From: an uncultured virus (IMG/VR IMGVR_UViG_3300023184_000085)
Lineage: Duplodnaviria; Heunggongvirae; Uroviricota; Caudoviricetes
Virus record (IMG/VR): IMGVR_UViG_3300023184_000085
Reading direction: 5' to 3' (one strand)
Length of the DNA stretch: 20,000 nt
In this document: positions 761 through 19,834 of the stretch, piece after piece
Layout: each line of letters starts with the position of its first letter
Numbering within the stretch: the stretch's first letter is position 1
Program-made: the position numbers and the translations under genes
Notes under the pieces: generated by a model
Database searches by the model: none
What the model saw: the letters and a program-made list of their open reading frames with translations, nothing else
What the model was told of the DNA's origin: nothing

Positions 761-1087
761 TTACTTTTGAGATTTTTTGTCACCATATTTTTTTTCTATA
801 AGTTCCCAAACATCTTTTGCTAATATTTTTGCTGCAACAGGTTTTTTAACAGGTCCAGTTGGCGCACCGCCACCACCCATAGCTGGTGGCATGCCTCCAC
901 CGCCTCCGCCCATAGCTGGTGGTGGCGCACCTCCGCCCATAGCTGGTGGTGGCGCACCTCCGCCGGGAGGCGGGGCTGCTTCTGGTGGCATACCGCCACC
1001 GGGAGGTGCTGCTCCTGCTGCTGGAGGAGGAGTAGCTTCCGTAAAAATACTACTTCGTACTTTAATAAATTCTAAAAATGTTTGCAT
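761..1087 (-). CDS. Pro/Gly-rich low-complexity protein with capsid-targeting-like N-terminus (MQTFLEFI)
   Basis: ATG preceded by TATAAATA. Charged termini flank PPAMGGGAP repeats. Same orientation as the downstream nuclease gene. Confidence 0.75.
   Translation of the reverse strand: MQTFLEFIKVRSSIFTEATPPPAAGAAPPGGGMPPEAAPPPGGGAPPPAMGGGAPPPAMGGGGGGMPPAMGGGGAPTGPVKKPVAAKILAKDVWELIEKKYGDKKSQK
903..964. repeat. 27-bp GC-rich tandem repeat, about 2.3 copies (CCTCCGCCCATAGCTGGTGGTGGCGCA), coding
   Basis: Units at 903-929 and 930-956, partial unit at 957-964, degenerate copy at about 873-890. Confidence 0.9.
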
Positions 1088-3167: not shown

Positions 3168-4007
3168 ATGTTAAGTATATTTGTAATATATTCTGTAGAC
3201 AGAATAGAACAGTTTGAAATATTCTATGAATGTTTACAAGAAATGCCGGGATACGAAGATTGTCAAAAAATATTAATTGTAGACGGCAAAGAAACTAATG
3301 TTTATCCAGAAGATTTTGAAATATTTTTCTGCGAAAGACCAAACAAACATTTTAATTGGGCAGCAGCTTGGAATCTTGGGGTCGAAAAATCAGCATACGA
3401 AAAAATATGGTATCTAGATTCTGACAGAATATTGCCAATACATTATTTGCAAACATTACAACGAAAAATAAAAGATAATACTTTTATTTATTCTTCTCAA
3501 ATAGTCGCTATGAAACAACATTGTTCTATAGATTTCATAAAAGAATGCCGACAAAATCCATATCTTCATTGGGATTCATATGCAGAAGATTATAGACTTC
3601 CATGTCCTCCGAACATGGAATTTCTAAGCATGGGTAAAAATCCAATGAGTGGAAACACTGGTTTCACCAAAACAAGTTATTATAAATCAGGAGGATTGAG
3701 TCTTGCGTTTGAAGGACCAGCCTTGGCTGATACAGATTATTATTATAAAACTTATTTAAAAAGATTCGATTTTGAAACTATACCATGTTTAGAATTACAC
3801 TTGAAACATAATTATTCGATTTCAGGCAAAGAACGTGATATTATGTATATGTACAATGCGATTAAAATATGCAAAAAATACAATTTAAAGCCAAGCGTAA
3901 AACTACAAGAAAGAATTAAAAACAACAACATAGACATTAGTTTTGCTAAATACGATATTGATAAATTTTTAGAACTGTGTCAAAACAACAAAATAAAATC
4001 ATTTTAA
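3168..4007 (+). CDS. GT-A fold glycosyltransferase (GT2/GT7C-like)
   Basis: AAAWNLGV..S, DxD motif YLDSDRILP, SGN...GG...F.G...D.D and HLKH. Confidence 0.75.
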   Translation: MLSIFVIYSVDRIEQFEIFYECLQEMPGYEDCQKILIVDGKETNVYPEDFEIFFCERPNKHFNWAAAWNLGVEKSAYEKIWYLDSDRILPIHYLQTLQRKIKDNTFIYSSQIVAMKQHCSIDFIKECRQNPYLHWDSYAEDYRLPCPPNMEFLSMGKNPMSGNTGFTKTSYYKSGGLSLAFEGPALADTDYYYKTYLKRFDFETIPCLELHLKHNYSISGKERDIMYMYNAIKICKKYNLKPSVKLQERIKNNNIDISFAKYDIDKFLELCQNNKIKSF

Positions 4008-5452
4008 ACAATCAAAGCCTCATCCAAAGTCACTTCTTTAATAATATGACCTTGATCTTTTAAAATTTTAATGCGTTTTTTGCTATGTTCTAATAAATAA
4101 GGATTTATATCAAATATGAAATCAAAATACTTTAAGTCTTCTTTATCTGAAGACACTCTCAATCCACGACCCATACGCTGTATGATTTGATGATCGGCTT
4201 GTCCACCAGCCGCATTAATCAATTGATGTAAAAAAACATTAATTCCGGTATTAAATATTTGTTGAGTCGCAATAGCTATTAAATTTTCCTTACTATGTTG
4301 CAATTCTTTTATTACAAATTTCCTCGTTGCCGAATCGTCTTTTCCTTGAACCCATAAAGAGTTTGGAATTATTTTATGTAATGTATCTCCGTGTGCGATT
4401 CTATCCACCAAAATCAAAGTTCTTCCTTTTTGTCTTATTGCTATTTCTTTAACCATATCATGAAACTCGTTGTTTTCCGCTATGCCTCTGGTTACAGCAT
4501 CGATATAAATATCGTGTGGCAAATCAGGCGATTTGACTGGTATAAAATAACCTTTTGATGCAGATAATATACCTCTGTTTTGTAATTCTTTAGTGGTTAG
4601 AATTCCAGACTCTACAGAATTTGTTTTAAGTACTGGACCAAAAAATCCTTTCACACCATACTTTTGTACCTTGTCTTTTTCTCCAAATTTGAATGGAGTG
4701 GCACTCAATGCAACTCTTATATCAGTTCCTTTTAACTTCTTGTAAACAGATTTAGGACCCGATGACATCATGTCGTGTATTTCATCGACTATAAGAACCT
4801 TTATTTTCGGCAAAAGATTTTCAATTTTTGAAATCGATTGAACACTTGCAACAGTTATTATGTTGGGATTTACTTCTTTTCCCCATAGACAGCCAACATT
4901 GGGTATGTCCCAGCTTTTAATTTCTTCGTAGTTTTGTGATGCCAATCCAACTCTGTTTTGCAAAACCAATATAGGAGTATTAGGTGGCAATGATTTTATT
5001 ATACTCACCATAATAAAACTTTTACCAGCAGATGTAGGAGCGTAAATAACTCCTCTCTTGTGTTTTATAATTTGATTCACAAAATCAACTTGATAGTCAT
5101 GCAATTCGAGACTTGGATTTTTAAATTTAAGATAATCTTTGTCTATGCTTTCAACCGCAAATTTAGTTTTAGCTCTTTTATCGTTGTATGATATTTTAAG
5201 ATTATGATGTTTTATCACCAAGATTACTTCTGGCAATAATCCAGTCAAAAATTTACCGCTAGTCTTATTGAAAAAATCAATGTATCCATCCCATAACTTT
5301 TGTTTGTATCTTCTATTGTGGAAATAATTTCTATCTCTAAATCTAAGACTTTGCCATAAAATATTTAGAATGTCTTGATTGGTGGTGGTACAAATAGAAA
5401 CATCGTTGTTTATGGTCAAAACAACATCGTGATCTTCCAGACTATTCGACAT
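4004..5452 (-). CDS. uvsW: SF2 DNA helicase, UvsW-like
   Basis: LHDYQ, APTSAGKS, DEIH, SATP, TGIN and QRMGRGLR. N-terminal 'WDGYIDFF...TGLL' segment typical of UvsW. Confidence 0.88.
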   Translation of the reverse strand: MSNSLEDHDVVLTINNDVSICTTTNQDILNILWQSLRFRDRNYFHNRRYKQKLWDGYIDFFNKTSGKFLTGLLPEVILVIKHHNLKISYNDKRAKTKFAVESIDKDYLKFKNPSLELHDYQVDFVNQIIKHKRGVIYAPTSAGKSFIMVSIIKSLPPNTPILVLQNRVGLASQNYEEIKSWDIPNVGCLWGKEVNPNIITVASVQSISKIENLLPKIKVLIVDEIHDMMSSGPKSVYKKLKGTDIRVALSATPFKFGEKDKVQKYGVKGFFGPVLKTNSVESGILTTKELQNRGILSASKGYFIPVKSPDLPHDIYIDAVTRGIAENNEFHDMVKEIAIRQKGRTLILVDRIAHGDTLHKIIPNSLWVQGKDDSATRKFVIKELQHSKENLIAIATQQIFNTGINVFLHQLINAAGGQADHQIIQRMGRGLRVSSDKEDLKYFDFIFDINPYLLEHSKKRIKILKDQGHIIKEVTLDEALIV

Positions 5453-5467: not shown

Positions 5468-6061
5468 TTAAAAATGTATTTTGTATTTACGCCTAATCAG
5501 CTTTATTACTTGTATAGCATCATCCACAGCATTATGCGTTACCTTTTCCTTGATGGAAGCTCTATCCAGACATGTTTCCATGTTGGGCAAATGATTGTCT
5601 TTTAAATGATCAAAATATAGTATAGCAGGATCTATCACCCTAGATCGAAACGAAATGTTAGACCAATCATTTTTTTGTATTTTTTCTTGCAAGAACATTA
5701 AATCAAATGTTGCGAAGTTTTTACCAGCAACATTTAAGTATATTTTCTCATTATCATCGTTGTAACCGTTTACGAAAAGAAAATTACTCAATCTTGTGAA
5801 CAATTCTTCTGGATAACAGATGTAAGGCGAATTATTTTCGACTTTGTTCGAAATGTCTAATAATATATTTCTACTATGTATCTTAATCGCTTTAGGATCG
5901 ACACAATAAGGTTCTTTTTTATTTAAATGATAATGAAAAACTGGTAAGTCTTTTATTGGCAAAGGATTCTTCAAATCATCAAGAACTGCTGCAAATTCTA
6001 AAATATCATGATTCTTAGGATCTAATCCGCTTGTTTCAATATCTATAGATGCGTATTTCAT
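5468..6061 (-). CDS. DEDDh 3'-5' exonuclease (DnaQ/oligoribonuclease-like)
   Basis: ExoI IDIETSGL, ExoII GKNFATFD, RVIDP and ExoIII HNAVDD. The start is more likely the ATG at 6061 (AAGGA upstream) than the TTG at 6100. Confidence 0.88.
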   Translation of the reverse strand: MKYASIDIETSGLDPKNHDILEFAAVLDDLKNPLPIKDLPVFHYHLNKKEPYCVDPKAIKIHSRNILLDISNKVENNSPYICYPEELFTRLSNFLFVNGYNDDNEKIYLNVAGKNFATFDLMFLQEKIQKNDWSNISFRSRVIDPAILYFDHLKDNHLPNMETCLDRASIKEKVTHNAVDDAIQVIKLIRRKYKIHF

Positions 6062-6109
6062 CGTGACTTCCTTATCTTGTTGGGCTGTAATAACGAACAA
6101 AAATTACGA

Positions 6110-6323: not shown

Positions 6324-7007
6324 ATGAATTTCCCTTCATTCGATGAAACTTCTATCTTGATAAAAACTCCTTTTTTTAAGATAGAACCAAAAATAATAGA
6401 AAACAACATTCCAAAAAAAATACATCAATTGTGGATAGGAAGCAAAAAACCACCTTTAGATTGGATGCACACATGGAAAATAAAAAATCCTGATTACGAA
6501 TACATTCTTTGGGATGAAGAAAAAATCGAAAAAGAAAATTTTCACAATCAAAGTCTTATCGACAAGATGCCAGAACTTAATGGTAAAGCAGATATAATGA
6601 GATATGAAATTTTGTATAAATATGGAGGATTTTTCATTGATGCGGACAGCGAATGTTTGAGGCCATTAAGCGACGAACTAAGAAACTATGAATTCCTTTC
6701 TTGTTATGAAAACGAAAAAATAAGAGGAGGAGTAGTCTCGTGTGCTATTTTAGGTTGTGCTTCTAATAATCAACTTATGGAAAACTGCATATCAAATCTC
6801 GAAGAACTAAACTTACCTATATCGCCAGCATGGTGGTATGTTGGTCCAATTTTTTTAACTTATGTGATCCATAAGTACAAATACAAAAACATAAACATAT
6901 TGCCATCTTACACATTTATACCATTTCATTATTCTGGAATGAAGTATTCTGGAGAATTTCTACCATTTGCAGATCAAAAATGGGCAACTACTTTGAATTT
7001 ATATTGA
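6324..7007 (+). CDS. Glycosyltransferase, GT32/OCH1-like (DxD sugar-binding)
   Basis: IPKKIHQLWIG, ADIMRYEILYKYGGFFIDAD and VGP.FLT. Confidence 0.9.
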   Translation: MNFPSFDETSILIKTPFFKIEPKIIENNIPKKIHQLWIGSKKPPLDWMHTWKIKNPDYEYILWDEEKIEKENFHNQSLIDKMPELNGKADIMRYEILYKYGGFFIDADSECLRPLSDELRNYEFLSCYENEKIRGGVVSCAILGCASNNQLMENCISNLEELNLPISPAWWYVGPIFLTYVIHKYKYKNINILPSYTFIPFHYSGMKYSGEFLPFADQKWATTLNLY

Positions 7008-7910
7008 TTTAGATTGACAGAATTCCCATGCTAATTTTTCGCAAAAATCTGTAAGATTCAAAAACGAATCCCTGTCTTTTATTAAATCATTGTATTTTAA
7101 AATTACATCATTAAACACAGGATCACAAATCAAATCATATTTTGAATCTTTGTGATCGTATGTGTATCCAGCAGCTGTGTCTTGCAAATCTTTATAAGTA
7201 ATTTCTTTTTTATTCTTAATCATATCAAATATTTTTTTCCAATGCGACCATTCTGGTTTTAAATTTTTATTATATGGATTTGCTAATTTAGACAGCCATC
7301 CGATTAAATACTTAGATTTCATCTGATTTATTGTTCTTATAGGAAAATGACATATTTTAATGTGTTTTGTGGTGTTTCTATTGATGTATTCGTTTTTCCC
7401 GTAATGAACTTCATGTTGACCTTCGACATAATACAATCCTTCACATGATTTAAATATGTTTCTATGGACAATAGCTTTAAGTTGATTTAAATTTATTGCT
7501 TTTGTTCTATGTGTTATTGTATTTAATATGTTTTTATCATTAGTCTCTATAGTGGGAACATAATTATACCAACACGCCATTAACAATTTATTGTCTTCAA
7601 ACACTATATCTTCTAAGTTTTTATCAAAAACAATAAATTCGTCCGCATCTAAAAATACAAACCAATCAGCGATTTCTTTGTATTCATTCAGTATTTTTGT
7701 GGATATTTGCGATTGAATGTGCCAAACGGATTTTTCATCAATTACATCAAGTTTTTTATATTCAGTTTGTAATTTTTTTAAAATCTTTCTTGTATTATCA
7801 GAACTATCGTGTTCGACAATTATTATTTTGTCGAAGTATACAGCGTGGTAACGCACGAATGTTTCGATGATATCTTCTTCATTTTTAACAATTGATGCTA
7901 TTATCTTCAT
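6999..7910 (-). CDS. Glycosyltransferase family 2-like
   Basis: IVKNEEDIIETFVRYH, HDSSDNT, WFVFLDADEF and HFPIRT. Confidence 0.88.
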   Translation of the reverse strand: MKIIASIVKNEEDIIETFVRYHAVYFDKIIIVEHDSSDNTRKILKKLQTEYKKLDVIDEKSVWHIQSQISTKILNEYKEIADWFVFLDADEFIVFDKNLEDIVFEDNKLLMACWYNYVPTIETNDKNILNTITHRTKAINLNQLKAIVHRNIFKSCEGLYYVEGQHEVHYGKNEYINRNTTKHIKICHFPIRTINQMKSKYLIGWLSKLANPYNKNLKPEWSHWKKIFDMIKNKKEITYKDLQDTAAGYTYDHKDSKYDLICDPVFNDVILKYNDLIKDRDSFLNLTDFCEKLAWEFCQSKSI

Positions 7911-8868
7911 GTGAATCGATTAGGAATTTACCCCATTGTTGTGACATGTATTTTGAATCCCATGATTTAATTTCATCGACAATACCATGATGCATTAATT
8001 GAAGTTTCTTTTTATCGCTTTTTAATTCTAATATTTTACCGACACATGAGTCAACATTTCTTTCGATAATATTACAATTACGAAAATAATTACTGTAACC
8101 AACATCGGTACACACAGGAACACATCCGCAAGCAGATGCTTCCAATAATGTACACGGACCTCCTTCCGATTTGGATAGACACAAAAAAACTTTGCATTCA
8201 TTGTAAATTTCATTCATATCTTTTAATGTTCTTTTGTTGTTGAAAGAATCGACATATATTTCTGCGAAATAAATATCTTTATATTTCGATAACTTGTTTT
8301 TTACTTGCTGTAAAATAGAATAACCCTTGTGTTCTAATCGCATCACACTTGATGAAAAAAATACAATAAAATCTCTTTGATCAAATGGTTTTTCTATAAA
8401 GAAAGTACTTAAATCAACGCCATCGTATGTAAGGTGTATATTTTCGAATCCGCTTTTAATCATAATTTCGTAGACATATGGATTGTTTACTGAAACACAA
8501 TTAAATGCTGATATCCTATCTTTTTTAATCATAATTTCATAAGGAGATAATACTTCGTTTATAGTAAGTACAACTTTTGTTCCTTTAAAGTTATGATGCT
8601 TTACAAAACTGACTAAATCTTTAGTTTCAGCAAAATACTGTTCATGCAAATGATGAATAATATCGTAATGTTTTTTTTCTACTTGATCGATCCAATTTAA
8701 ATTTGCGAAACCTATATCGATATCGAATTGTGGAAGATGCTTCTTATAATCTATTCCTTTAAAATGAAAACTCCAATTTGGTGTGTCTGCCAAATACAAA
8801 ACATTTATTTTATTATTTGTACAGTCGAGATTCGGTATTACAATTTTAGGTAATTTATTTAGTTTCAT
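7885..8868 (-). CDS. GT-B glycosyltransferase, family 4
   Basis: DGVD...F, HKG and the EX7E motif SEGGPCTLLEASACGCVPVCTDVG. Confidence 0.9.
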   Translation of the reverse strand: MKLNKLPKIVIPNLDCTNNKINVLYLADTPNWSFHFKGIDYKKHLPQFDIDIGFANLNWIDQVEKKHYDIIHHLHEQYFAETKDLVSFVKHHNFKGTKVVLTINEVLSPYEIMIKKDRISAFNCVSVNNPYVYEIMIKSGFENIHLTYDGVDLSTFFIEKPFDQRDFIVFFSSSVMRLEHKGYSILQQVKNKLSKYKDIYFAEIYVDSFNNKRTLKDMNEIYNECKVFLCLSKSEGGPCTLLEASACGCVPVCTDVGYSNYFRNCNIIERNVDSCVGKILELKSDKKKLQLMHHGIVDEIKSWDSKYMSQQWGKFLIDSHEDNSINC

Positions 8869-9154
8869 TATGTGACAACACTCTAACTATATCGCCAACA
8901 GTAGAAAAGTCTTTATTGTCTATAATATCAATCATGGCATCAATTGTGTCTTGATTTAAATCAGAAATGTCTCCTAAACCTAATATTTTTTTCTTAAGAC
9001 TTTCTTTTGTATAGCCAGATTCTTTCAAACTTTTAACACTAGTAGACATGCCATCCTTGTTGCCCTCTAAGTTTAAAAACTTTAACAACAAGTTCTTATA
9101 ATGATCAAAACCATGTCTTTCTTCTAGCCATAATTTAAAATTTGATTTGTTCAT
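8855..9154 (-). CDS. Hypothetical protein with capsid-targeting-like N-terminus (MNKSNFKLWLEE)
   Basis: 99-aa ORF with AAGGA SD. Overlaps the GT4 start. Confidence 0.75.
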   Translation of the reverse strand: MNKSNFKLWLEERHGFDHYKNLLLKFLNLEGNKDGMSTSVKSLKESGYTKESLKKKILGLGDISDLNQDTIDAMIDIIDNKDFSTVGDIVRVLSHNETK

Positions 9155-9186
9155 TTTGTTCCTTGGTAGCTCTATATAAGATAGAT

Positions 9187-9987
9187 ATGAAAAACATTAT
9201 CAGTAATTTTAAAACATTTTTTGAATTTGCCAATTATGGTTTCGAAGTTCAGACTTCAAAAACTATAGGTGGAACCGTCATGCAAGATGGTGAAAAGCCT
9301 ATTAATTACATAGATTCTAATTTAATTGTGGATGAATTAGTTAGACATAAAATAAACGATGTCGAACCAGTAAATTTTTGGGAAAATGTTGTTCAATGGG
9401 GTTCTGATCCCGGAGCAATTAAATTAGAAATTACACCTCTTGGTTCATATAGAATTGTAATAAGAAAATTAATAAAAGATTTAGTCGGGAATAGCACTTG
9501 GATTACAAAGAATGTAATAGATCTTGATGATGCATATTCTGGTCACAGTGAAATAGCTTATGCCGAAGATTGTTTAGGTATAATTGAAAATCTCAATAAA
9601 GAAAATTTAGATCATGCATCTGCCAACTGCGAAAACTTTGATAAACTTGCTTGGAAGCTATGGAATAAATGTAAGGCTGTGTTTCCTTCTTATATAATGT
9701 TTCCAATAGGCATGAAAAAAATGAGTGAAAATTATTACAAGCTCATATATGAATTTAAAGGTGGTGGCGTAGAAGCTCCAACAAGATCGAGAGCAGAACA
9801 ATTCGATATTGATCTTCATTTCAATAAAACCACAGGAATTATAAAGGCATGGGGATACGATATTGATTCAGATACCAGACAACATAGCTGGAAAATTCAA
9901 ATTTCAGATTTCAACGAATGGTTCGCTCCTTCGCAACCAATGGATGAAATAATAGCTGTAATAAATAATTCGTTTATGACATATTAG
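9187..9987 (+). CDS. Hypothetical protein (266 aa) with N-terminus MKNIISNFKTFFE
   Basis: Long ORF. The ATG at 9187 lies behind TATATA (9173-9178) and is preferred over the TTG at 9142, which overlaps the divergent gene. Confidence 0.8.
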   Translation: MKNIISNFKTFFEFANYGFEVQTSKTIGGTVMQDGEKPINYIDSNLIVDELVRHKINDVEPVNFWENVVQWGSDPGAIKLEITPLGSYRIVIRKLIKDLVGNSTWITKNVIDLDDAYSGHSEIAYAEDCLGIIENLNKENLDHASANCENFDKLAWKLWNKCKAVFPSYIMFPIGMKKMSENYYKLIYEFKGGGVEAPTRSRAEQFDIDLHFNKTTGIIKAWGYDIDSDTRQHSWKIQISDFNEWFAPSQPMDEIIAVINNSFMTY

Positions 9988-9994
9988 GATTTTC

Positions 9995-10483
9995 ATGAAA
10001 AAAAAATACATAAATTATTCTTTAAGTCTTACATTTTTAATGTGCATGTTTATATTTGTTTCTTTGACGAAAATAGATCATGCTGGGCCTCAAAATCACA
10101 TCAGTCAAGATAAATTAACAAATAATGATTATGCACAAAACGAAGAATCGGATAGTTATCAAAAAATTATCCAGAAATCAAAAATAGAAAACAAAAAAAT
10201 AATATTATTTTTTATAGATTCTACATGTGATTGGTCTGACAAATTTTTTGAAACTTTAAAAGACTCGGATGTAAACAGTTATATTTCAGACAATAATTAT
10301 ATTAAATATTATGTTGATGTCGAAAAGAACAAAAATGTATTTTTGAAATACAAAGTCGAATCTACTCCTTGGTATATTGTTGTTGATGAAAACGAAAAAA
10401 TAATTAAGATTGGATCTGGTTACAAACAAAAAAGAGAATTTTTAATTTGGCTAAAAAACATCATTAGAAATAATTCTAAATAA
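9995..10483 (+). CDS. Thioredoxin-fold protein with N-terminal signal/TM segment and CxxS motif
   Basis: Hydrophobic N-terminus, KKIILFFIDSTCDWS, YYVDVE, KYKVESTP (cis-Pro loop) and GY...EF..WL. Confidence 0.75.
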   Translation: MKKKYINYSLSLTFLMCMFIFVSLTKIDHAGPQNHISQDKLTNNDYAQNEESDSYQKIIQKSKIENKKIILFFIDSTCDWSDKFFETLKDSDVNSYISDNNYIKYYVDVEKNKNVFLKYKVESTPWYIVVDENEKIIKIGSGYKQKREFLIWLKNIIRNNSK

Positions 10484-11318
10484 ACTTTCCAAATTTAACT
10501 TTATTGTATTCATCGAAAAATCTTTTTTTAATCACTTCGTTTTTTAGATCATTTGCTGTTTTTACATACAATTTCGCTTCTCTATACCTCTCGTTAACTT
10601 CTATATTCCATTTGTTGCAATACTTCAGCATATTAGCCACACAATTTACTTCTTTTTCATCTTTGGTAAAGAAGCATTCTTTATAAAAAAATTGTTTTTC
10701 ATGATATAAATGTATTTCGTATTGATTGTGATATACAGTGTTACAACTTGAATCAATTAAAACTTTTTGTGTTATATCATTATCGTTAAAGGAATAGCCC
10801 AAGAAAGTTTCATCCATTCCGCCTAATTCTTTGTATTTTTTTTTATAGAACATAACATTACCAGAAAATAAATTTTTACAATTTATCTTGTTTTCTTTTG
10901 ATCTTTCTTCTTGTGTGTAATTAAACGAATTGTTTTCAATAGACTCGTCATCTTCTTCTTTTTCGCATTGTTGAATATATTCAACCGTGACGAAATCATT
11001 TTTACTTAAAGTAACCGCATTGTTGTAAAAATAATTATAAGGTAATATTCTATCGCTATCTAAAATTACAATTTTATCGTTAATTGAATGTTCAACACCT
11101 AAATTGCACATAAAAGGCTTGTTGTATATTTGTAAATTTAAATTGTATTTTTTAATATCAAAAACAGAAGATGTTATTTCTTTATTAAAAGAATCATGAA
11201 ATAAAATTACTAATTCAGAACCTTGTATTTTTATTTCTCTTTTTTCTAAAAGCCTTAACAATTGAAATAAATTTTTAATTCTTGATGAGTGCAAACAGAT
11301 AATAAAAGATATTTTCAT
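10476..11318 (-). CDS. GT-A fold glycosyltransferase (GT2/GT7C-like), paralog of 3168..4007
   Basis: MKISFII, NLGV..S, ILDSDRILP, SGN...LGGMDETFLGYSFND and HLYH. Confidence 0.8.
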   Translation of the reverse strand: MKISFIICLHSSRIKNLFQLLRLLEKREIKIQGSELVILFHDSFNKEITSSVFDIKKYNLNLQIYNKPFMCNLGVEHSINDKIVILDSDRILPYNYFYNNAVTLSKNDFVTVEYIQQCEKEEDDESIENNSFNYTQEERSKENKINCKNLFSGNVMFYKKKYKELGGMDETFLGYSFNDNDITQKVLIDSSCNTVYHNQYEIHLYHEKQFFYKECFFTKDEKEVNCVANMLKYCNKWNIEVNERYREAKLYVKTANDLKNEVIKKRFFDEYNKVKFGKFI

Positions 11319-12064
11319 TTTAATTCATTATAGAATAAAACTTCATATATTTTTTTAGTCTTATCGCTAATAGACACTTTGTATATGTTTAAATCTATGT
11401 TTATTTTATTTAAATCTATTAAGTCTTTGCATTTTTCAAAGTAATTTGAAAGAATTAGGTAGTATGGGCTTATTTTTTGTAAAACTACCCACATTTTAAA
11501 TTCATTATTTGATATTTTTTCTTTATACTCCTTGAACCCATAATCTTTTCCTAATTTTTTATTTAAAAATTCATATGTATTTTTTAATCCAAGAATTACT
11601 TTTTCTGTTGAAATAGAAATTGGAGCATTTACATTTTTGATTCCCGATTTCTTTTGTTTGACAAGAGCATCGTATCTGTATTTCCATAGTTTCCATCTTT
11701 TCCATGCTTTTTCGCCAGCCAAACAATTTATGTTTATAAGTGGCTTTTCGTTGTTGTCTATGTTTATTCTTTTTAAAATATCTAATTGAGCGAAAACATA
11801 AAGGTGGTATTCGTCTTCTGATAATTTATCTTTTGTTTCTCGTTGTAGCTTAAAACAATATTTGAAAACGAGAGACTTTCTAGGATCTCCTTTTAGTTTT
11901 CTTCCAGATGCCATATCAGGGAATAGCTTTCTTAAAGAATCGTGCCAACACAAAGTTATTTTGTAGGCTTTTTCTTCTTCTGCTGTCATTTTGTACTTTT
12001 GTATGGCCATTTCGAGCATTTTATTGAATTCGTGAGAAAAGAATGTATCTTTATTATTTAACAT
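11315..12064 (-). CDS. Hypothetical basic protein (249 aa)
   Basis: Long ORF with TAAATA 4 nt upstream of the ATG and a 4-nt overlap with the downstream GT. No family recognised. Confidence 0.8.
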   Translation of the reverse strand: MLNNKDTFFSHEFNKMLEMAIQKYKMTAEEEKAYKITLCWHDSLRKLFPDMASGRKLKGDPRKSLVFKYCFKLQRETKDKLSEDEYHLYVFAQLDILKRINIDNNEKPLININCLAGEKAWKRWKLWKYRYDALVKQKKSGIKNVNAPISISTEKVILGLKNTYEFLNKKLGKDYGFKEYKEKISNNEFKMWVVLQKISPYYLILSNYFEKCKDLIDLNKINIDLNIYKVSISDKTKKIYEVLFYNELK

Positions 12065-12068
12065 AAAC

Positions 12069-12165
12069 TATTTAACTCGCCACTCTAAAAAATTAACATT
12101 TTAATTAATATATAAATTATGACATCATTTACACAATTTTTAGAACAACGAGATCCAGAACTTTA
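12069..12165. repeat. 97-bp perfect direct repeat, copy 1 (divergent promoter pair plus the first ~15 codons of the 13050 gene)
   Basis: Identical to 13000-13096 by direct comparison. Confidence 0.95.
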
Positions 12166-12187
12166 CGATGAGCTTTTGAAATGTTAA
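12119..12187 (+). pseudogene. Truncated duplicate of the 13050 gene N-terminus (MTSFTQFLEQRDPELYDELLKC*), overlapping the start of the next gene
   Basis: First 16 residues identical to the 13050 product. Stop at 12185-12187 overlaps the ATG at 12181. Confidence 0.7.
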
Positions 12188-12918
12188 AAACTATTAAATG
12201 TGGCTTTATAACATATGCTGATAAAAATTTTTTAAAATCTAAAACAAGAATTTTAGAAGAAGCAAAAAAATTTAGAGAATTTTATAAAATAAAAAGTTTT
12301 GACGTTGAAGATCTGGATGTACATTTTAAAAAAAAATTTAAAAAAATATTAAGTTTTCCAAGAATTGCTGGTTACGGAATATGGAGACCATACATAATTA
12401 AAAAATTTATAATTGATACAAATCCTGATTATTTAGTATATTTAGACGCAGGATCTACGATAAATATCGAAGGGAAAAAAAGATTTTTTGAATATATTAA
12501 AATTTTAAATAATACTGATTGTGGAATAATTTCTTTTGAATTAAAAGGACGATTGCACACAGAAAGATTTTGGACAAATAAAGAAATCTTTGAATATTTT
12601 AATTTATCTTTAGATGGCAAAATAGCATTATCAAATCAATATCTAGATGGTGTATTGATAATGAAAAATAATGTTAATTTAAATAAACTAATAGATCTTT
12701 GGCTTAAATCTGTATATGATAATCCTTATATGTTTACTGATATTTTTAACAATAATCAAAAAGTTTATTTTAAAGATAATCGACATGAACAAAGCGTATT
12801 TAGCATAATAAGAAAAATACATGGATCATTTGTAATCAAAAACGAATCAAATTTTGAATTTTTTGGTTGTGAAGAGTCTTTAAAATATCCTTTTTGGGCT
12901 ACTAGATATCGTGGTTAA
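12181..12918 (+). CDS. Putative GT-A glycosyltransferase-like protein
   Basis: GYGIWRPYII, LVYLDAG and RHEQSVFS motifs. Visibly more AT-rich than its neighbours. Confidence 0.6.
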   Translation: MLKTIKCGFITYADKNFLKSKTRILEEAKKFREFYKIKSFDVEDLDVHFKKKFKKILSFPRIAGYGIWRPYIIKKFIIDTNPDYLVYLDAGSTINIEGKKRFFEYIKILNNTDCGIISFELKGRLHTERFWTNKEIFEYFNLSLDGKIALSNQYLDGVLIMKNNVNLNKLIDLWLKSVYDNPYMFTDIFNNNQKVYFKDNRHEQSVFSIIRKIHGSFVIKNESNFEFFGCEESLKYPFWATRYRG

Positions 12919-13096: not shown

Positions 13097-13910
13097 TAAT
13101 CAACTTATAAATGAAGGGATTTCTGATATTTGGCAAAATACCAAAAATTTCTTTGGTGAATTCTGGAATCGTTTAAAATCGCAAGGAAAAGAATTCCAAG
13201 AAGATGCTGTAAAAATCAAAAAAGCATACGATGAAGGAAAATTAAAACCAAAACAAATAGAAGAAATTAGTGTGGCTTCAAAAAAAGGAGATTGGTGGGG
13301 TGTGGCTAAAATTCTAGCTACTGCTGGAGTTATTGGTTTGTCGGCACTTACTGTTGGTGCTGGTCACGCTTATGCTCCTAATGATATTGGAACTGATTTT
13401 AAATTTTCTCCAGATAATGAAACTTTGATTCAAGGTGAAAAAGATGTACCTAACGACCCAAATGCTACATATGATGTTGCTGCGATCAACAAACTTACAA
13501 TGGACTCTCATAAAGATAAAGATGACTTCCAAACTTCTATAAGAAGTGCAAACCAAGATGATCCAGATGATTTTACAGCTGTACAAAGCAACATAGATCT
13601 TAAATCAAGTCACAGTGAATTAACATCAATGTTGCCAAAAGATATTAAAAATTACATGAAAGAAAAGGGAATCACAGATAATGTACTTACAAATATGGAA
13701 AAAACTGCTTTAAACAAAGATGTTAATTCATTGACGCAATATGATAAAAATACCCTTCGTGGAATAAACAATAAATTAAGTGCTTTTCATTATGTTACTT
13801 CCGACCAAGGAGGGAAACACTTAGCACATGGTTTCTTCGATGCAGAAGGTAAAGCAGGACATATTGATCAATCACCAGATGAAATTTATAATTTAAACAA
13901 AATCAAATAA
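13050..13910 (+). CDS. Hypothetical, probably virion-associated protein with capsid-targeting-like leader and an internal hydrophobic segment
   Basis: MTSFTQFLEQRDPELYNQLINEG leader, WWGVAKILATAGVIGLSALTVGAGHA segment, and TATATA 4 nt before the ATG. Confidence 0.8.
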   Translation: MTSFTQFLEQRDPELYNQLINEGISDIWQNTKNFFGEFWNRLKSQGKEFQEDAVKIKKAYDEGKLKPKQIEEISVASKKGDWWGVAKILATAGVIGLSALTVGAGHAYAPNDIGTDFKFSPDNETLIQGEKDVPNDPNATYDVAAINKLTMDSHKDKDDFQTSIRSANQDDPDDFTAVQSNIDLKSSHSELTSMLPKDIKNYMKEKGITDNVLTNMEKTALNKDVNSLTQYDKNTLRGINNKLSAFHYVTSDQGGKHLAHGFFDAEGKAGHIDQSPDEIYNLNKIK

Positions 13911-13919
13911 ACTATCTCG

Positions 13920-14540
13920 AACTCAATAATTTTTAAAATAAAATCACTCAAAGTTATTACATTAGGGTTGCAATAATTTTAATTAAAGCAACAATGTAAA
14001 TTAATACTTTGAAAACTTTGAATACTGAGATGAAGGCTCTAATCCTTCCATTATTTTATGATTGGCTGCGTTCCCTTGAGTAATTTAATGAAAAAACCTT
14101 GGAGCGTCTTACCCAGATGAAGTCTTAGTTGTTAAACACAATACTGTACGAGCAGTATTCTTCTCCAATGGTCAAGGTAGTCTAGGATAGGAAAAACCAC
14201 CCGAATCTTTAGTTAAACTTAATTAACCTTATGTTTTTCTAGAGCTATCTTAGATTAGGCGACCATAACAAACGCACCATAATGTTAGCGTAACTTTCGG
14301 TTGTTAACTTAAGTTACTAAAGTTTTTAAGTGAAACTATTGTTTCAAATATTAACTCTTAACTTAAGTAACATAATGCTAATGGAAGTAACAATTAAGGT
14401 ATTACTAATTACCTTAATTAAAAATCCATTTCCCCTTAAGTCGGGACCTCGGTACGTAAAAATAATACTATTTAACTAAAAGTAACTGTCTATTGTTTTT
14501 TATGTAAGTGTTTGTTAGATTTCATTTAACAAATATATTT
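13920..14540 (+). ncRNA. Candidate large structured ncRNA and/or replication-origin region
   Basis: No ORF of 60 aa or more. More than 15 nested helices found by eye, several completed by G-U pairs on the + strand (see findings). Ends are approximate. Confidence 0.65.
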
Positions 14541-14551
14541 AGGGAAAATCT

Positions 14552-15856
14552 ATGATTAAGTTCATTTCAGACATAGTTTCGATTAGCGGTACTTCGAGTA
14601 CTTTTTATATAAGTCTAGAAAATGATTCGATTGATTTTACAAACTCTGAAACAAGGCAAATTTTGCGTATTTGTTCTTCTGAGGGAGAATGTAGCATTCC
14701 GATAGAGATAAAGGAATTACCGCTGCTTATTGAGGTTCTAAAAGGCACTGTATTATCAAAGCAATCAAAGGTAGTTGCGTGGAACTGGAAAGACTTCGTT
14801 TCTTATGTTTCATTTCATTTTGGGAAGTTAGTTGAATTTCAAGCTGTAGTACTTGATTTAAAGATTATCGAATCGTATTTTTTCATCAAACAAGAAAAAC
14901 CAGTTAACTATTTGTCTGCTTTGATTCGTTTCAAGAAATTAAAGACAGATAAAGATTGGGAAAAGTTTTACAATATATATAATTCTGTTTATTTGCCTTT
15001 AATCACTTTAGTAATTCCTACGATGGAAAACACGCCTTTACTTGATTGCGAGCTTAAGGATAGGGTATATGCTCATTATTCCATAAACGGACAAGACAAT
15101 GGCAGAATGCTATGTTCTAACGCAAGGATCAAAGGCTACAACCCTCACACGCTATCAAAAGATCAAAAAGGTAAATATAAACCATGCGTTCCTTATAATG
15201 TATTTTTGAATTTTGATTTTAGAAGCATGGAAGTTGCGGTATTGGCTTATCTGGCTAATGACGAAAAGTTATTAGAATTGATTCAAGCACCAGATATTTA
15301 TTCAAGTATATTTGTGGCTATAACAAATAGCGTTGCAGATGACAATTCTAAGATTTTAGCGAAAAAAATATTTTTACCGACTATATATGGCATGTCGGCA
15401 CGGACTCTTGCTGAACAAGCGGATATCCAATTATCTCTTGCCGAACAAATTTGTAGCAATATAAATAAAATATTTTTTAAATCTGTAAATTATGTCAAAG
15501 GCTTCGTGTCTTTGGCTGAATCTCAAGGAACAATAAGTGATTATTTTGGCAAGAGAAGAACATTTACTGAAAATTTCTATAAGGCTCGCAATTTTTGTAT
15601 TCAATCACCTGCATCATTAATTTGTTTAGAAAAATTAGTTCAGTTATGGAAAAAAATACAGCATAAGACTAGAATTTGTTATCATGTACATGATGGTTAT
15701 TATGTATATGCACAAGATGATAATTGGAAAGAAGTGGCTATTGAAGCGAAAAAGGTTCTTGTTGGTGAATCACAAATATGTCCCGGCATGAGATTGAGAG
15801 TGGCTTGTCATGGGGGGACTAAATTAAATAACTTGAAGTCACTCGAAAAGCGATGA
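14552..15856 (+). CDS. polA: Short family A DNA polymerase-like protein with degenerate exonuclease domain and apparently no thumb
   Basis: NGRMLCS (motif 2), DFRSMEVAVLAYLAND (motif A), KILAKKIFLPTIYGMS (motif B), ARNFCIQSPAS (motif 6) and HVHDG (motif C). Confidence 0.88.
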   Translation: MIKFISDIVSISGTSSTFYISLENDSIDFTNSETRQILRICSSEGECSIPIEIKELPLLIEVLKGTVLSKQSKVVAWNWKDFVSYVSFHFGKLVEFQAVVLDLKIIESYFFIKQEKPVNYLSALIRFKKLKTDKDWEKFYNIYNSVYLPLITLVIPTMENTPLLDCELKDRVYAHYSINGQDNGRMLCSNARIKGYNPHTLSKDQKGKYKPCVPYNVFLNFDFRSMEVAVLAYLANDEKLLELIQAPDIYSSIFVAITNSVADDNSKILAKKIFLPTIYGMSARTLAEQADIQLSLAEQICSNINKIFFKSVNYVKGFVSLAESQGTISDYFGKRRTFTENFYKARNFCIQSPASLICLEKLVQLWKKIQHKTRICYHVHDGYYVYAQDDNWKEVAIEAKKVLVGESQICPGMRLRVACHGGTKLNNLKSLEKR

Positions 15857-15860
15857 GTAA

Positions 15861-16424
15861 ATGAAAGAAATATGCAATAATTTTCCAATCACATCAGAAG
15901 AATATTTTGAATTAGATAAAAAATTTGGCAAACTTTGTTATTACGCAGCACATCAATTAAAAAAGAAAAATTCAAAAAACAACTGTGTCGAAGATATAGA
16001 CGATATAAATCAAGAGCTTCAACTTTCTATTATTCGTGCTGGATCTTATTACAAGAGACAGATTTATATTGAAAGTTCACTTGTGTTGGCCAAGGAACAC
16101 ATTAAGAAGACCGTAAAAAATAAAAAGTTAGTTTTAACTTTACAAAATTTGTGGAACAACAGGACTCGTCACGGTGCGAATAGACAAAAATTTGGACCTA
16201 TTCAAGAAAAGTTATTAGACGAATTGATTAAAAAATATGTTCCCAAAGACATCAGACCAAGTAAAACTGAATCGTTAAAAATTGACACAAAGTTTTCGAC
16301 TTATTGTAAAGCAATTGTTTGGAATGGCCAGAAGAGCATGGGCAAGAAAATTACTAGAGAAAAAGCTATTCGATCAGGTTTGGTTAGTTTGTCTGAATAC
16401 GATTATCTTGGTACGAATTTGTAA
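15861..16424 (+). CDS. Sigma70 region-2-like protein (phage sigma factor candidate)
   Basis: DIDDINQELQLSIIRA resembles region 2.2 (DLIQEG.IGL..A) and DTKFSTYCKAIVWN resembles region 2.3 (KFSTYA.WWI). No region 4. Confidence 0.6.
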   Translation: MKEICNNFPITSEEYFELDKKFGKLCYYAAHQLKKKNSKNNCVEDIDDINQELQLSIIRAGSYYKRQIYIESSLVLAKEHIKKTVKNKKLVLTLQNLWNNRTRHGANRQKFGPIQEKLLDELIKKYVPKDIRPSKTESLKIDTKFSTYCKAIVWNGQKSMGKKITREKAIRSGLVSLSEYDYLGTNL

Positions 16425-16481
16425 CTTCTGATATTGTTCTTCTGCTTAGTTAATGTTATTTCGTAAGTAGGAGAAAGTAAA

Positions 16482-17984
16482 ATGAGTTTGACACCAGAAG
16501 AACAAGCGATAATCGAGTCGTTAACGAATCCAGAAACGCAACAGACGAAGTTTTCATGGGACGATATGTTCCAAAAGAAATTGCTTGGTATGTTGCTTAC
16601 TGATAAATACATGTTGATTCAAAGTATCGACAAACTAAAGCCAGAATATTTTTCAAATGAAATACATGTTCTGATATCGAAAATTTTATTCGACTACTTC
16701 AAAGAAAAGAATTCTATTCCTGATCATTTTATAATGAACACGGAACTCACCTCGAAGATAAAAGACAAAGATAAAACTATTCAGTTGTATCATTGTGCTG
16801 AATTAGGAAGTTTATATAGCTATTATGTTCCCGGACTTGATACGAGAGAATACCTTATCGATAAGGTATTCTACTTTGCTAAAGTACAAGCGGTAAAAGT
16901 AGCATTTCACAATTGTCTTGAAAAAATGAAAAAGGCACCAGAGGAAGAAAAGACTTGGGCGTATGTTTACGAGCAAATGCGTCAGTCTATGTTGATCGAG
17001 CGATCATATGAACCGGGACTTGAATATTTTTTAAATATAGATTTGATGTTTGATCGCATGGAAGATCAGTTCGCTGGTAAGGATAGATTCACATCTGGAT
17101 TTCCTTCTATAGATAACAATTTGACTGGAGGTGGCTTATTTCATGGGCAAATAGCTTCGTGGATAGGATTGCCCGGTACTGGCAAGTCTTTGGCTCTTTC
17201 GAAGGCTGCTGTTGCTAATGTTCTTTTAGGCCATAAAGTTTTATATTTAACTATGGAAATGGATGAGATAGGAATAGCAACAAGATTTACATCTCAATTT
17301 ACAAAGATTGATATAAATTTATTAAAAGAGAACAGAGATCAAGTTAAGAGTACGATTGAAGAATTTAAAAAGGACAAAGAAAATTCTAATCTTTTAATTG
17401 TAAAGCAATTTCCCGGTGGCATGATCGATGTCAATGGTATTAGAGCTTATCACGCTCAATTGCTTCTTAGAGGTTGGAAGCCAGATTTAGTTATTGTCGA
17501 TTATGTCGGAGAAATGAAAGATGACCCGACTGTTAAGAAGTACGAGTCTGCTTATAGAATATTAAGAGATTTAAGAGGTTTCGGGGTCGAACAAAATCAT
17601 TGTACATTTACATGTTTGCAACCAAATCAATCAGCAGCAAAATTAGAATTAAACGAATATATCGACGAATCAAACATAGGAACATCGTTTGATCAATATA
17701 AACCACTTGATGCTTTTTGGTCTATTAATCAAAAAAGTTCCGAGAAGGATGCTGAGATAGGAAGGGTATTTGTTATAAAACACAGAAATGGACAATCAAG
17801 GTTCAATTTTAAAATAGGATTTGATTTATCTATGGGTACATTAGATTTGTATGAAATAACAAATGAAAAATATAAAGAATTATTTAGCACTTCGAATTCT
17901 CAGAAAACAGAAGATTTAAATTTCGATCAGTTTAAAGCTGGTGGTAAAAAGAAAAAATCTGAATCATTCGATGACGAAGAATGA
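16482..17984 (+). CDS. dnaB: Replicative helicase, DnaB/T4 gp41-like
   Basis: SGFPSID..L.GG, Walker A GLPGTGKS, YLTMEM, IVDY, QPNQ and KHRNG. AGGAG SD upstream. Confidence 0.92.
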   Translation: MSLTPEEQAIIESLTNPETQQTKFSWDDMFQKKLLGMLLTDKYMLIQSIDKLKPEYFSNEIHVLISKILFDYFKEKNSIPDHFIMNTELTSKIKDKDKTIQLYHCAELGSLYSYYVPGLDTREYLIDKVFYFAKVQAVKVAFHNCLEKMKKAPEEEKTWAYVYEQMRQSMLIERSYEPGLEYFLNIDLMFDRMEDQFAGKDRFTSGFPSIDNNLTGGGLFHGQIASWIGLPGTGKSLALSKAAVANVLLGHKVLYLTMEMDEIGIATRFTSQFTKIDINLLKENRDQVKSTIEEFKKDKENSNLLIVKQFPGGMIDVNGIRAYHAQLLLRGWKPDLVIVDYVGEMKDDPTVKKYESAYRILRDLRGFGVEQNHCTFTCLQPNQSAAKLELNEYIDESNIGTSFDQYKPLDAFWSINQKSSEKDAEIGRVFVIKHRNGQSRFNFKIGFDLSMGTLDLYEITNEKYKELFSTSNSQKTEDLNFDQFKAGGKKKKSESFDDEE

Positions 17985-18067
17985 TTATAATTTTTTCAAA
18001 CTAGGATTGATTAAATTTAATTATATATTTTAATGTGTGTGTACGAACATCAAACGAGGTAATTCAA

Positions 18068-18568
18068 ATGTTAGACGAAATTCCGAACGAATGCATTGTT
18101 GTAGTGGTATGTGGCAAAGATGTCAGGTTAGATCCAGAATACATGAAATTCAATGAAGCTAATATCAATAAATTCATGGAACAAGAGTATGGATGGATTG
18201 ATTACTTTGGAAAACAACTTGAATTGGCTCAAAAGGAATTAGCCTTGGCATCATTAGAATATGATGTTTTGTATAACGAAAAATACATTCAAGTTAAAGA
18301 TCAGGGAAATTCCGACACATATTCAAAGGCTAAAGCTCAAACAGATACTGTGGTTATCGATAGTTATAAAAAAATGCTTTCAAAGCGAGAAACGGTTGGT
18401 CTTATAAAAGCATATCTTAGAGCTTGGGATAGAAATCATGATAATGCTCAAAATCGTGGTCATACTCTTAGAAAAGAATTCGAAAAGCTGAAAGATACTA
18501 GGTCTGCTGATTTTCCAGATGTAAGTTACAATCAAGACAAGCAAATAGAGGACATATTAAATGGCTGA
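18068..18568 (+). CDS. Coiled-coil protein, UvsY-like recombination mediator candidate
   Basis: Helical pattern (YFGKQLELAQKEL...YNEKY...KAKAQTD) and size resemble UvsY-like proteins, and it lies next to the helicase. ATG at 18068 has a GAGGT SD. Confidence 0.55.
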   Translation: MLDEIPNECIVVVVCGKDVRLDPEYMKFNEANINKFMEQEYGWIDYFGKQLELAQKELALASLEYDVLYNEKYIQVKDQGNSDTYSKAKAQTDTVVIDSYKKMLSKRETVGLIKAYLRAWDRNHDNAQNRGHTLRKEFEKLKDTRSADFPDVSYNQDKQIEDILNG

Positions 18569-19091
18569 TTTTGAAAATGCAAAGCATTATTCCTTTTCAG
18601 ACCACCAACTCGAACAAAACATATTATTTTGGCTGTGTGCCGAAGATAATGATATTTTGAACGTTGCTAAAAATTTAAATGCATTTTTAGATAAATGGAA
18701 TGATAAAGGAAAACTTTCTCCTTTTCAAAGCATAAGAAGCATGGTTGATAAAACAAATGTTCCATTGGAAATTAAAAACTTTGCGATAAAAGATCATAAC
18801 GAAAAAGCTATAGTTTTTATACTCCTTGCTTTTTCTGGAATCAATCTTCGCACTTGTTCGTTTAAAGAATTTTTAAAAGTAAAAGGATTGAAAAACAATG
18901 TCGTTAAATGTTTTTTAATTCATACAAGACAGCTTTGCGTTGAAGATTATACTTATGAAATAAGTTCGAACAAACCAGAAACAAAAAAAACAATCAATTC
19001 AAAAGAACAAAAATCTAAGGACATCATAGACAACAGAGAAATGTTAGATTTTGATTTAAGTGTATGGAACATTATCAGGAAAAATAAATGA
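18561..19091 (+). CDS. Degenerate helix-hairpin-helix (HhH-GPD/glycosylase-like) protein
   Basis: LEQNILFWLC, SPFQSIR and SGINLRTCSFKEFLKVKGLKNNVVKCFLIHTR match the layout of a phage HhH family, but the hairpin is altered. GAGG SD upstream. Confidence 0.5.
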   Translation: MADFENAKHYSFSDHQLEQNILFWLCAEDNDILNVAKNLNAFLDKWNDKGKLSPFQSIRSMVDKTNVPLEIKNFAIKDHNEKAIVFILLAFSGINLRTCSFKEFLKVKGLKNNVVKCFLIHTRQLCVEDYTYEISSNKPETKKTINSKEQKSKDIIDNREMLDFDLSVWNIIRKNK

Positions 19092-19834
19092 TAGATGTTA
19101 ATAGGATTTATAATGAAGATTGTCTTGAAACAATGTCGAGAATGCATGATGGATTTGTTGGATTGACTGTGACGAGTCCTCCATATGATAATTTGCGTAT
19201 TTATAATGGTTATGTTTTTGATTATAAAAAAACAGCGGAAAGTTTGTATAGAGTGACTAAATCTGGAGGTGTCGTTGTTTGGGTTATTGCCGATGGAAGT
19301 GTAGATGGTGGAGAAACAGGAACTAGCTTCGAACAAGCTCTTTATTTTAAGAATATAGGATTTAAAATTCACGACACTATGATTTATGAAAAAACAGGAT
19401 TCTCAAATCCAAGTTCGACTAGGTATCATCAAGTTTTTGAATATATGTTTGTGTTCAGTAAAGGTTCTCCTAAAACATTCAATCCAATAAAAGATAGAGA
19501 AAACAAATACAAAGGAGTTCATGGTGGCGAAAGATCTTTTCGTGAAGATTTTGGCATGAGATATAATGTTTGGAAGTATGCTAATGGTGGAGGTAATACT
19601 TCGAAAGATAAAGAAGCATTCAAGCATCCAGCCCCAATGCCAGAAAAACTTGCTAATGATCATATAGTCAGCTGGAGTAACGAAGGCGATTTAGTCTATG
19701 ACCCTTTCATGGGAAGTGGAACTACAGCTAAAATGGCTATCCTAAACAAACGTAACTTTATAGGTAGCGAAATATCAAAAGATTACTGCGATATCGCAGA
19801 GAAAAGAATCAAGGATATTGTAAGTGATAAATAA
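19088..19834 (+). CDS. DNA methyltransferase, N4C/N6A beta class
   Basis: NEDCL, catalytic TSPPY, HPAPMP, SAM-binding DPFMGSGTT and IGSEI. Confidence 0.93.
   Translation: MIDVNRIYNEDCLETMSRMHDGFVGLTVTSPPYDNLRIYNGYVFDYKKTAESLYRVTKSGGVVVWVIADGSVDGGETGTSFEQALYFKNIGFKIHDTMIYEKTGFSNPSSTRYHQVFEYMFVFSKGSPKTFNPIKDRENKYKGVHGGERSFREDFGMRYNVWKYANGGGNTSKDKEAFKHPAPMPEKLANDHIVSWSNEGDLVYDPFMGSGTTAKMAILNKRNFIGSEISKDYCDIAEKRIKDIVSDK

Follow-up and report, generated by a model that had tools for sequence, protein, structure and literature searches.

A family A DNA polymerase without a thumb in a phage replication module

We examined a 20,000-nucleotide stretch of DNA from an uncultured Caudoviricetes virus (IMG/VR record IMGVR_UViG_3300023184_000085; hereafter "the window") and, within it, the gene of a 434-amino-acid (aa) protein, PolA. 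PolA is a genuine family A DNA polymerase maintained by selection, in essence KlenTaq with the thumb removed: we confirmed that a tight beta-hairpin with the four-residue turn CELK stands where KlenTaq has a thumb of about 109 residues. The thumb, regarded as a standard part of right-hand polymerases, grips the product duplex and governs processivity and frameshift fidelity. PolA has lost it but keeps the fold and the catalytic residues of its family; its gene lies among replication genes, and its relatives are found together with a DNA polymerase III alpha subunit (Pol III-alpha). We infer that PolA is catalytically active, of low processivity and accessory in role, and we think it probable that in huge phages it acts as a second, distributive polymerase alongside a C-family replicase.

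A beta-hairpin in place of the thumb

The polA open reading frame (ORF; Table 1) encodes a family A DNA polymerase. Its product matches Pfam DNA_pol_A (PF00476) at 83.4 bits (cut-off 34.3, E 2e-23), with residues 168-424 aligned to positions 103-378 of the 381 in the profile, while profile positions 1-102 have no counterpart in PolA. An earlier note, made from the sequence alone, had proposed that the entire thumb is missing and that CELK is all that links the segments flanking it. The translation reads exactly as quoted there, in one open frame, ...TMENTPLLD-CELK-DRVYAHYSINGQDNGRMLCS..., the codon of T157 beginning at nucleotide 15020 and CELK forming residues 166-169 (nucleotides 15047-15058). 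When a profile of the family was compared with PDB sequences, positions 172-420 aligned to residues 267-529 of the KlenTaq chain (E 2.6e-28), and positions 143-164 fell on chain residues 137-157, a piece that is not significant by itself. Between the two, 109 KlenTaq residues stand opposite 7 profile positions; we take these unmatched residues to be helices H to I, that is, the thumb.

The predicted structure agrees with this alignment. An AlphaFold2 model built from a 52-sequence family alignment reached a predicted local distance difference test score (pLDDT) of 95.4 and a predicted template modeling score of 0.93. Secondary structure assignment by DSSP gives a helix at 136-159 and strands at 163-165 and 170-177, a plain hairpin, so the claim that the thumb is gone holds in both sequence and model. 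With this model as query, Foldseek returned Pol nu, Bst, Klenow and Taq at E ~1e-19, and VIA-align superposed model residues 6-430 on Taq 297-832 (KlenTaq 3lwm_A; Z 32.7, root-mean-square deviation (rmsd) 2.8 A, 393/434 residues) and placed 408-414 residues on Bst and M. smegmatis Pol I. The aligned residues (393-414 of the 434) correspond to parts of these three enzymes outside the thumb, and no thumb is formed elsewhere in the chain. Because the exonuclease-like domain, palm and fingers account for almost every residue, the model has no domain left over as a thumb stand-in in cis.

PolA resembles the large fragments of Pol I enzymes closely. KlenTaq, the Bst large fragment and Klenow share its arrangement of exonuclease-like domain, palm and fingers (Z 30-33, rmsd ~3 A, 385-414 residues), and motifs A, B and C can be aligned; PolA differs in having no thumb, a Gly for the second acid of motif C and a Leu at the Phe762 equivalent. 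The three-domain layout of bacterial Pol I is not found: PolA has no 5'-3' exonuclease domain, and the NCBIfam Pol I equivalogs TIGR00593 and NF004397 score 48-50 bits against cut-offs of 600 and 720, with a match that covers residues 213-403 only.

Assembly or sequencing errors, or recent decay in this one genome, have next to no chance of explaining the short junction. Contigs from DNA runs of two other studies bridge the site: contig X2 record 12 spans 14152-16500 with 0 gaps and contig X4 record 16 spans 13900-16500 with 19 substitutions and 0 gaps; neither contig is listed with an indel or joint. Each of 14 DNA runs contains 72% or more of the words sampled from 13900-16500. The frame is open, and the same junction recurs across relatives. 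A homologous-protein search gave 56 of them, 299-483 aa long (most 416-445 aa) and some on contigs of 475-673 kb, and an exhaustive representative search gave 213 clusters (50% identity) at E <= 1e-30. We aligned 198 proteins to the family profile, 197 of which cover the junction and are used for all residue counts below. Between the equivalents of E159 and Y176, 13-21 residues are present in 197/197 (16 in 173 of them); none retains the thumb, and in the seven proteins of more than 470 aa the extra length consists of N-terminal extensions, not of thumb insertions. Thumb loss is a fixed, ancient state of a large phage family. The earlier suggestion of a clean in-frame loss rather than decay thus stands, but not as a one-off deletion in a bacterial polA, since the state is family-wide and spread over 213 clusters, and the gene belongs to a phage replication module rather than to a bacterial chromosome.

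Catalytic residues and the exonuclease-like domain

The motifs downstream of the junction, which the earlier note had described as intact, are kept throughout the family. The Asp residues of motifs A (D222) and C (D381) are invariant, as is R185 in the Q-x-N-G-R segment (each 197/197); E227 of motif A and K271 of motif B are each present in 196/197, and Y279 is Tyr in 143 and Phe in 54. We take their E. coli equivalents to be D705 (motif A Asp) for D222, E710 (the steric gate) for E227, R668 for R185, K758 for K271, Y766 for Y279 and D882 for D381. In Pol I enzymes, the steric-gate Glu keeps ribonucleotides out. The one qualification to intactness concerns motif C, where the position after the Asp, 382, is Gly in 177, Ala in 11, Ser in 4, Glu in 4 and Cys in 1, so that the second acid is missing in 193/197. 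In motif B, the Phe762 equivalent, L275, is Leu in 189/197, Ile in 7 and Phe in 1. Leu at Phe762 made Taq polymerase slower and more accurate, as Nasko et al. 2018 (PMC6302109) cite from Suzuki et al. 2000.

The N-terminal domain is a vestige of a 3'-5' exonuclease. In the model it superposes on Taq from residues 1-6 onwards, starting at Taq 295-297, and within residues 1-135 K80 and D102 are the sole invariant positions. The putative exonuclease-acid positions vary: 82 is Leu, Phe or Ile, and 21, 23 and 124 are mixed, these positions being assigned by our reading of the alignment and model. On this reading the proofreading site, like that of Taq, has been lost.

Table 1. Features of the window and, in the last four rows, of related contigs (positions are those of the window unless a contig is named)
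Feature	Position	Strand	Basis or remark
Thumbless family A DNA polymerase gene (PolA, P0001, 434 aa)	14552..15856	+	ORF, PF00476, AlphaFold, KlenTaq superposition
Vestigial 3'-5' exonuclease-like N-terminal domain, residues 1-135	14552..14956	+	Structural alignment to KlenTaq and Bst large fragment
Beta-hairpin in the thumb's place, residues 163-177; turn CELK	15038..15082	+	DSSP, KlenTaq alignment, junction length
Conserved Q-x-N-G-R segment, residues 181-189, counterpart of the primer-terminus Arg motif	15092..15118	+	Aligned to Taq T-G-R-L-S-S
Motif A, residues 216-235 (D222, E227)	15197..15256	+	Aligned to Taq motif A
Motif B / O-helix, residues 267-280 (K271, L275, Y279, G280)	15350..15391	+	Alignment to Taq
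Motif C, residues 375-388 (H380, D381, G382)	15674..15715	+	Aligned to Taq H-D-E
Structured RNA, conserved core	14073..14213	+	Covariance model R2, covariation, folding z-score
187-aa sigma-region-2-like protein, helical, disordered tail	15861..16424	+	Directly downstream of PolA in 80/80 loci
DnaB-like replicative helicase	16482..17984	+	phrog_19 7.3e-52; Pfam DnaB_C
SbcD-like nuclease	2-679	-	
Dda/RecD-like helicase	2070-3146		
Superfamily 2 (SF2) helicase	4004-5452	-	
DnaQ/RNase T-like 3'-5' exonuclease	5468-6100	-	phrog_192 "DNA polymerase exonuclease subunit" 2.1e-17; PF00929 6.1e-11
Glycosyltransferase-like and unknown genes, interleaved with replication genes	3168-4007, 6324-8868, 10476-11318, 12181-12918		
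DNA methyltransferase	19088-19834		
Split Pol III-alpha	G002:C1 126583-126900 and 136233-136727		
Split Pol III-alpha	G003:C1 9895-10392 and 14658-14960		
Split Pol III-alpha	G004:C1 118365-118859 and 139797-140111		
Split Pol III-alpha	G005:C1 231009-231320 and 235899-236396		

The replication module and the polymerases of relatives

PolA sits in a phage replication module that comprises a structured RNA, PolA itself, a small sigma-like protein and DnaB. We compared the proteins of the window by tblastn with 80 IMG/VR loci encoding a PolA relative; these include many near-duplicates, and their upstream regions form ~21 groups. DnaB is encoded downstream of PolA in 78/80 loci. Three proteins with no Pfam or PHROG family also recur near PolA and are candidates for further members of the module: o281 (9142-9987, + strand) in 61/80 loci, o249 (11315-12064, - strand) in 71/80 and o177 (18035-18568, + strand) in 73/80. 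The DnaQ-like exonuclease could possibly act as a proofreader in trans for PolA; its gene lies within 10 kb of PolA in only 5/80 loci.

The small protein directly downstream of PolA is more strongly conserved than PolA: leaving aside four near-identical loci (98-100%), its identity is 52-68%, against 30-43% for PolA. AlphaFold predicts a helical protein (pLDDT 81.9) with a disordered tail at 172-187, which is conserved all the same and ends in a hydrophobic-acidic motif. Aligned with 48,161 chains by VIA-align, its model reached a best Z of 7.0, which is weak for a helical protein, but sigma-factor domain 2 makes up about one-third of the 50 best rows; the Atlas feature search placed it at 0.94 to a cluster with Sigma70_r2 in 53%. 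It had no Pfam family over the cut-off, no PDB sequence match and no Foldseek match. We considered this protein as a thumb provided in trans and rejected it, given the lack of any such match and weak likenesses that point to sigma region 2; it is probably a transcription factor and not a thumb. A comparable layout is described for T4 gp55, which has a sigma-70 domain-2-like fold, a flexible linker and a hydrophobic-acidic C-terminal tail that binds the clamp (Geiduschek and Kassavetis 2010, PMC2988020). The layout of the 187-aa protein, with its weak sigma-2 likeness and a disordered linker ending in a hydrophobic-acidic tail, recalls that description; no clamp was detected in five relatives.

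Upstream of PolA lies a 641-nucleotide gap that folds better on the + strand (z-score -5.6) than on the - strand (-3.1) and holds the conserved core of a structured RNA; the whole element probably spans ~13977-14413. The core aligns with regions upstream of PolA in other clades over 24 invariant columns, and 12 of its 19 predicted pairs show compensatory changes. By eye, an extra helix that RNAalifold missed (~14101-14104 with 14162-14165) covaries as well. The covariance model R2, built from 12 loci with the window left out, matched the window at 53.1 bits (E 3.1e-10), and a model including the window gave 35 matches in the 80 sources (the window and 34 loci), all on the + strand and upstream of PolA, at a distance of 300-500 nucleotides and on the same strand as the gene. 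Blastn and nhmmer searches with the upstream region had returned near-identical loci only, before the covariance model reached the others, and a metagenome scan for intermediate relatives gave a single 99%-identical locus. No Rfam family matched the RNA at gathering score, a tRNA-like match staying below threshold (20.9 bits vs 29). Within 13800-14650, a promoter scan gave counts at chance level and a terminator scan found a single short hairpin resembling a terminator, which lies within the RNA. The stretches 13977-14413 and 14026-14181 are covered by contigs from two RNA libraries, a coverage that is no proof of transcription.

The polymerases encoded beside PolA were surveyed in six large records, LR756511.1 and five IMG/VR contigs that are 46-79% complete; in incomplete records, absences at Pfam level are no proof of absence. 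A Pol III-alpha-type polymerase is present in 5/6 records. It is a single ORF of 1183 aa in LR756511.1 (PF07733), and PF07733 is found in 4/5 of the IMG/VR contigs, the fifth, without a match, being the least complete (46%). In these four contigs the homolog is split between two ORFs, of ~450-480 and 880-950 aa, separated by 5-21 kb (Table 1). PolB (PF00136) was detected in 0/6 records. Pairwise identity among three genomes is lowest for PolA (33-36%), followed by DnaB (41%), the Pol III-alpha pieces (45-49%) and the sigma-like protein (55-61%); the faster divergence of PolA, as read from these sequences, would fit a less constrained accessory enzyme. The earlier note had also proposed looking for a separate thumb-like ORF and for the true replicase. 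No such ORF was found in LR756511.1, since PF00476 at E <= 1 gives one match each there and in contig G001, and the likely replicase is the Pol III-alpha-type enzyme of the relatives. A 387-aa ORF directly upstream of PolA in LR756511.1 (L001 6781-7944, + strand) shows PolA-like motifs by eye only and was rejected as a PolA relative (hhalign probability 1%, no Pfam or PDB match).

The window itself is AT-rich, with a GC content of 0.23-0.36. As its best match among deposited phages is LR756511.1, a 595-kb uncultured phage, we infer that the source genome measures several hundred kb; by CheckV, near-identical IMG/VR contigs of 37-40 kb reach 8% completeness. Two genes of the glycosyltransferase-like cluster match PHROG glycosyltransferase families. 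A 108-aa ORF at 761-1087 (- strand) consists mostly of Pro/Gly/Ala repeats, and the long ORF opposite it is probably its shadow. No tRNAs, and no Rfam families at gathering score, were found in the window. The cumulative GC skew has its minimum at ~11000-12200, where coding passes from the - to the + strand, and may mark an origin or merely this strand switch.

Known thumbless polymerases and the likely role of PolA

The present family is a variant of a thumbless design that has been in print since 2024. Yutin et al. (Virol J 2024, 21:200, PMC11348598) describe divPolA1 in 14 phages of 155-190 kb, including Flavobacterium phage vB_FspM_immuto, with a truncated thumb, replaced exonuclease acids, kept palm residues and replication genes downstream. 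Elsewhere in their genomes these phages carry a "regular" polymerase as well, from family A, B or C; the authors infer a role in replication for divPolA1 from its context and find that of the "regular" polymerases less obvious (PMC11348598). As described there, divPolA1 shares with PolA a length of ~440 aa, the truncated thumb, the inactivated exonuclease domain and the conserved palm residues. In the protein of immuto 3-5A (441 aa), the only divPolA1 member that we compared, the thumb is lost at the same point as in PolA: the Pfam match again starts at profile position 103, and ~20 residues separate the two flanking strands; its gene heads a replication cluster with DnaB 4 kb downstream. Our family profile aligned to this protein over 193 C-terminal columns with 19% identity (hhalign probability 61%, E 8e-5). 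The two families are only remotely similar in sequence. No divPolA1 genome was among the tblastn matches at E <= 1e-5, and the present family is nearer to Taq/Bst Pol I (E 2.6e-28) than to divPolA1. Motif C reads H-D-G in the present family and Y-D-A in divPolA1, and the host phages, 155-190 kb for divPolA1 by the published account, reach several hundred kb for the present family. The sigma-like neighbor is missing in immuto, where the genes downstream of divPolA1 are unrelated to the 187-aa protein. The two families may go back either to one ancient thumb loss or to independent losses.

Other polymerases offer looser parallels. The divPolA2 of barbaviruses, a second PolA of the phage without a homologous thumb (PMC11348598), is set apart by its description, which gives it an unrelated N-terminal globular domain, variable neighborhoods and a likeness to RNA polymerase, none of them seen in PolA. 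The jumbo phage PhiKZ has a split B-family polymerase with a clamp-derived subunit, Rhc (Basu et al., bioRxiv 2026, PMC13648687). As reported, this is a precedent for a grip on the duplex that comes partly from a separate protein, although the PhiKZ enzyme is unlike PolA in belonging to family B, in keeping its thumb and in having a partner found by experiment. Our literature search, which left the supplementary tables of Yutin et al. 2024 outside its scope, returned no description of the present thumbless family, and the word thumb is not used in Nasko 2018 or Keown 2022.

How might such an enzyme work? The chain runs from a vestigial, presumably inactive exonuclease-like domain into palm and fingers, and the four-residue turn joins the two strands of the palm between which the thumb helices would normally sit. 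The apparatus for templated dNTP addition is kept, namely the Asp of motif A with the steric-gate Glu, Lys and Tyr of the O-helix, the Asp of motif C and the primer-terminus Arg. In a complete enzyme the thumb closes on the primer-template duplex; lacking this clamp, PolA would be expected to bind DNA weakly and to add few nucleotides per binding event. The earlier note had likewise predicted an enzyme that is distributive or relies on a partner, which is a reasonable expectation. Deletion of the thumb tip in the Klenow fragment, or of the thumb in T7 RNA polymerase, leaves catalysis in place while DNA binding and processivity fall. Within the replication module, PolA may carry out short synthesis such as primer extension or hand-off, gap filling or repair, with the C-family enzyme as the processive replicase. 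We favor this second, distributive polymerase because the huge phages that carry PolA also encode a Pol III-alpha-type polymerase.

Several observations weigh against this assignment. The PolA gene lies at the core of the replication module beside DnaB, in the spot that a replicase would occupy, and it is for this kind of position that Yutin et al. 2024 drew such an inference for divPolA1 (PMC11348598). Neither the 5'-3' exonuclease PF02739 nor RNase H PF00075, both expected for Okazaki-fragment maturation, was detected in the five large relatives (0/5 each). The N-terminal domain of the beta clamp, PF00712, was likewise detected in 0/5, so the C-family enzyme's own processivity factor was not found either. 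Pol III-alpha was seen in 0/4 fragments of the window's own lineage, which are 5-40 kb long and only 1-8% complete by CheckV. In addition, the Gly that follows the motif C Asp may lower or alter catalysis.

The strongest competitor, to which we give a minor but real share of the probability, is that PolA is the main fork polymerase and obtains its processivity in trans from DnaB or another protein of the module, Pol III-alpha being employed elsewhere. T7 gp5, which depends on thioredoxin and gp4, illustrates such an arrangement. The linkage of PolA to DnaB (78/80 loci), with o177, o249 and o281 nearby in 73, 71 and 61 of the 80, fits this view, as do the context argument for divPolA1 in replication (Yutin et al. 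2024, PMC11348598) and a Pol III-alpha homolog split into two ORFs, 5-21 kb apart, in 4/5 large contigs. A fork polymerase would, however, be the fastest diverging of the replication proteins compared, would have no proofreading site and would share 5/6 large records with a Pol III-alpha homolog, and no partner of PolA was found. A much less probable view assigns PolA to the upstream structured RNA, which would serve as a ColE1-like origin primer or form a ribonucleoprotein with PolA and replace the grip of the thumb. In the window and 34 loci the RNA is indeed conserved, 300-500 nucleotides before PolA and on the strand of the gene; it was recognized in the window by a model built without the window, and has compensatory changes in 12 of its 19 pairs; RNA-library contigs from two studies cover it, and the cumulative GC skew minimum at ~11-12 kb lies near the RNA/PolA locus. 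Yet adjacency is the sole tie between RNA and protein, and a polA mRNA leader or operator accounts for the same facts. The first RNA model had no match in the other 45 sources, the library contigs are no proof of transcription, and the skew minimum coincides with the switch of coding strand.

The structured RNA, thumbless polymerase, mini-sigma and DnaB may also be parts of one initiation machine, an idea that we rate a shade lower still. The sigma-like factor would help to transcribe the RNA, which would act as origin primer or RNA "thumb"; the thumbless polymerase would elongate it before DnaB and the C-family replicase took over. If true, phages would have their own counterpart of the ColE1 pair RNA II and Pol I, with a specialized polymerase. 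Lowest among these functional proposals we place PolA as a pseudo-enzyme or scaffold, or as a PolA-derived RNA polymerase or primase. The second acid of motif C is missing in 193/197 proteins, there is neither a thumb nor an exonuclease site, and Yutin et al. raise an RNA polymerase role for divPolA2 (PMC11348598). Such a role is at odds with the metal-binding Asp pair, O-helix Lys and primer-terminus Arg kept in 196-197/197 proteins, with the steric-gate Glu (E227) kept in 196/197, and with best fold matches that are all DNA polymerases.

Altogether, the thumb has here been cleanly removed in nature, with the outcome under selection in hundreds of huge-phage lineages. PolA offers a natural minimal Pol I core for studying what a thumb contributes. 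Unusual enzymology may also be looked for in it, whether synthesis of very short patches, acceptance of duplexes that are not B-form or contain RNA, or reliance on a new partner. The family also helps to sort out how A-family and C-family polymerases divide their labor in phages of several hundred kb.

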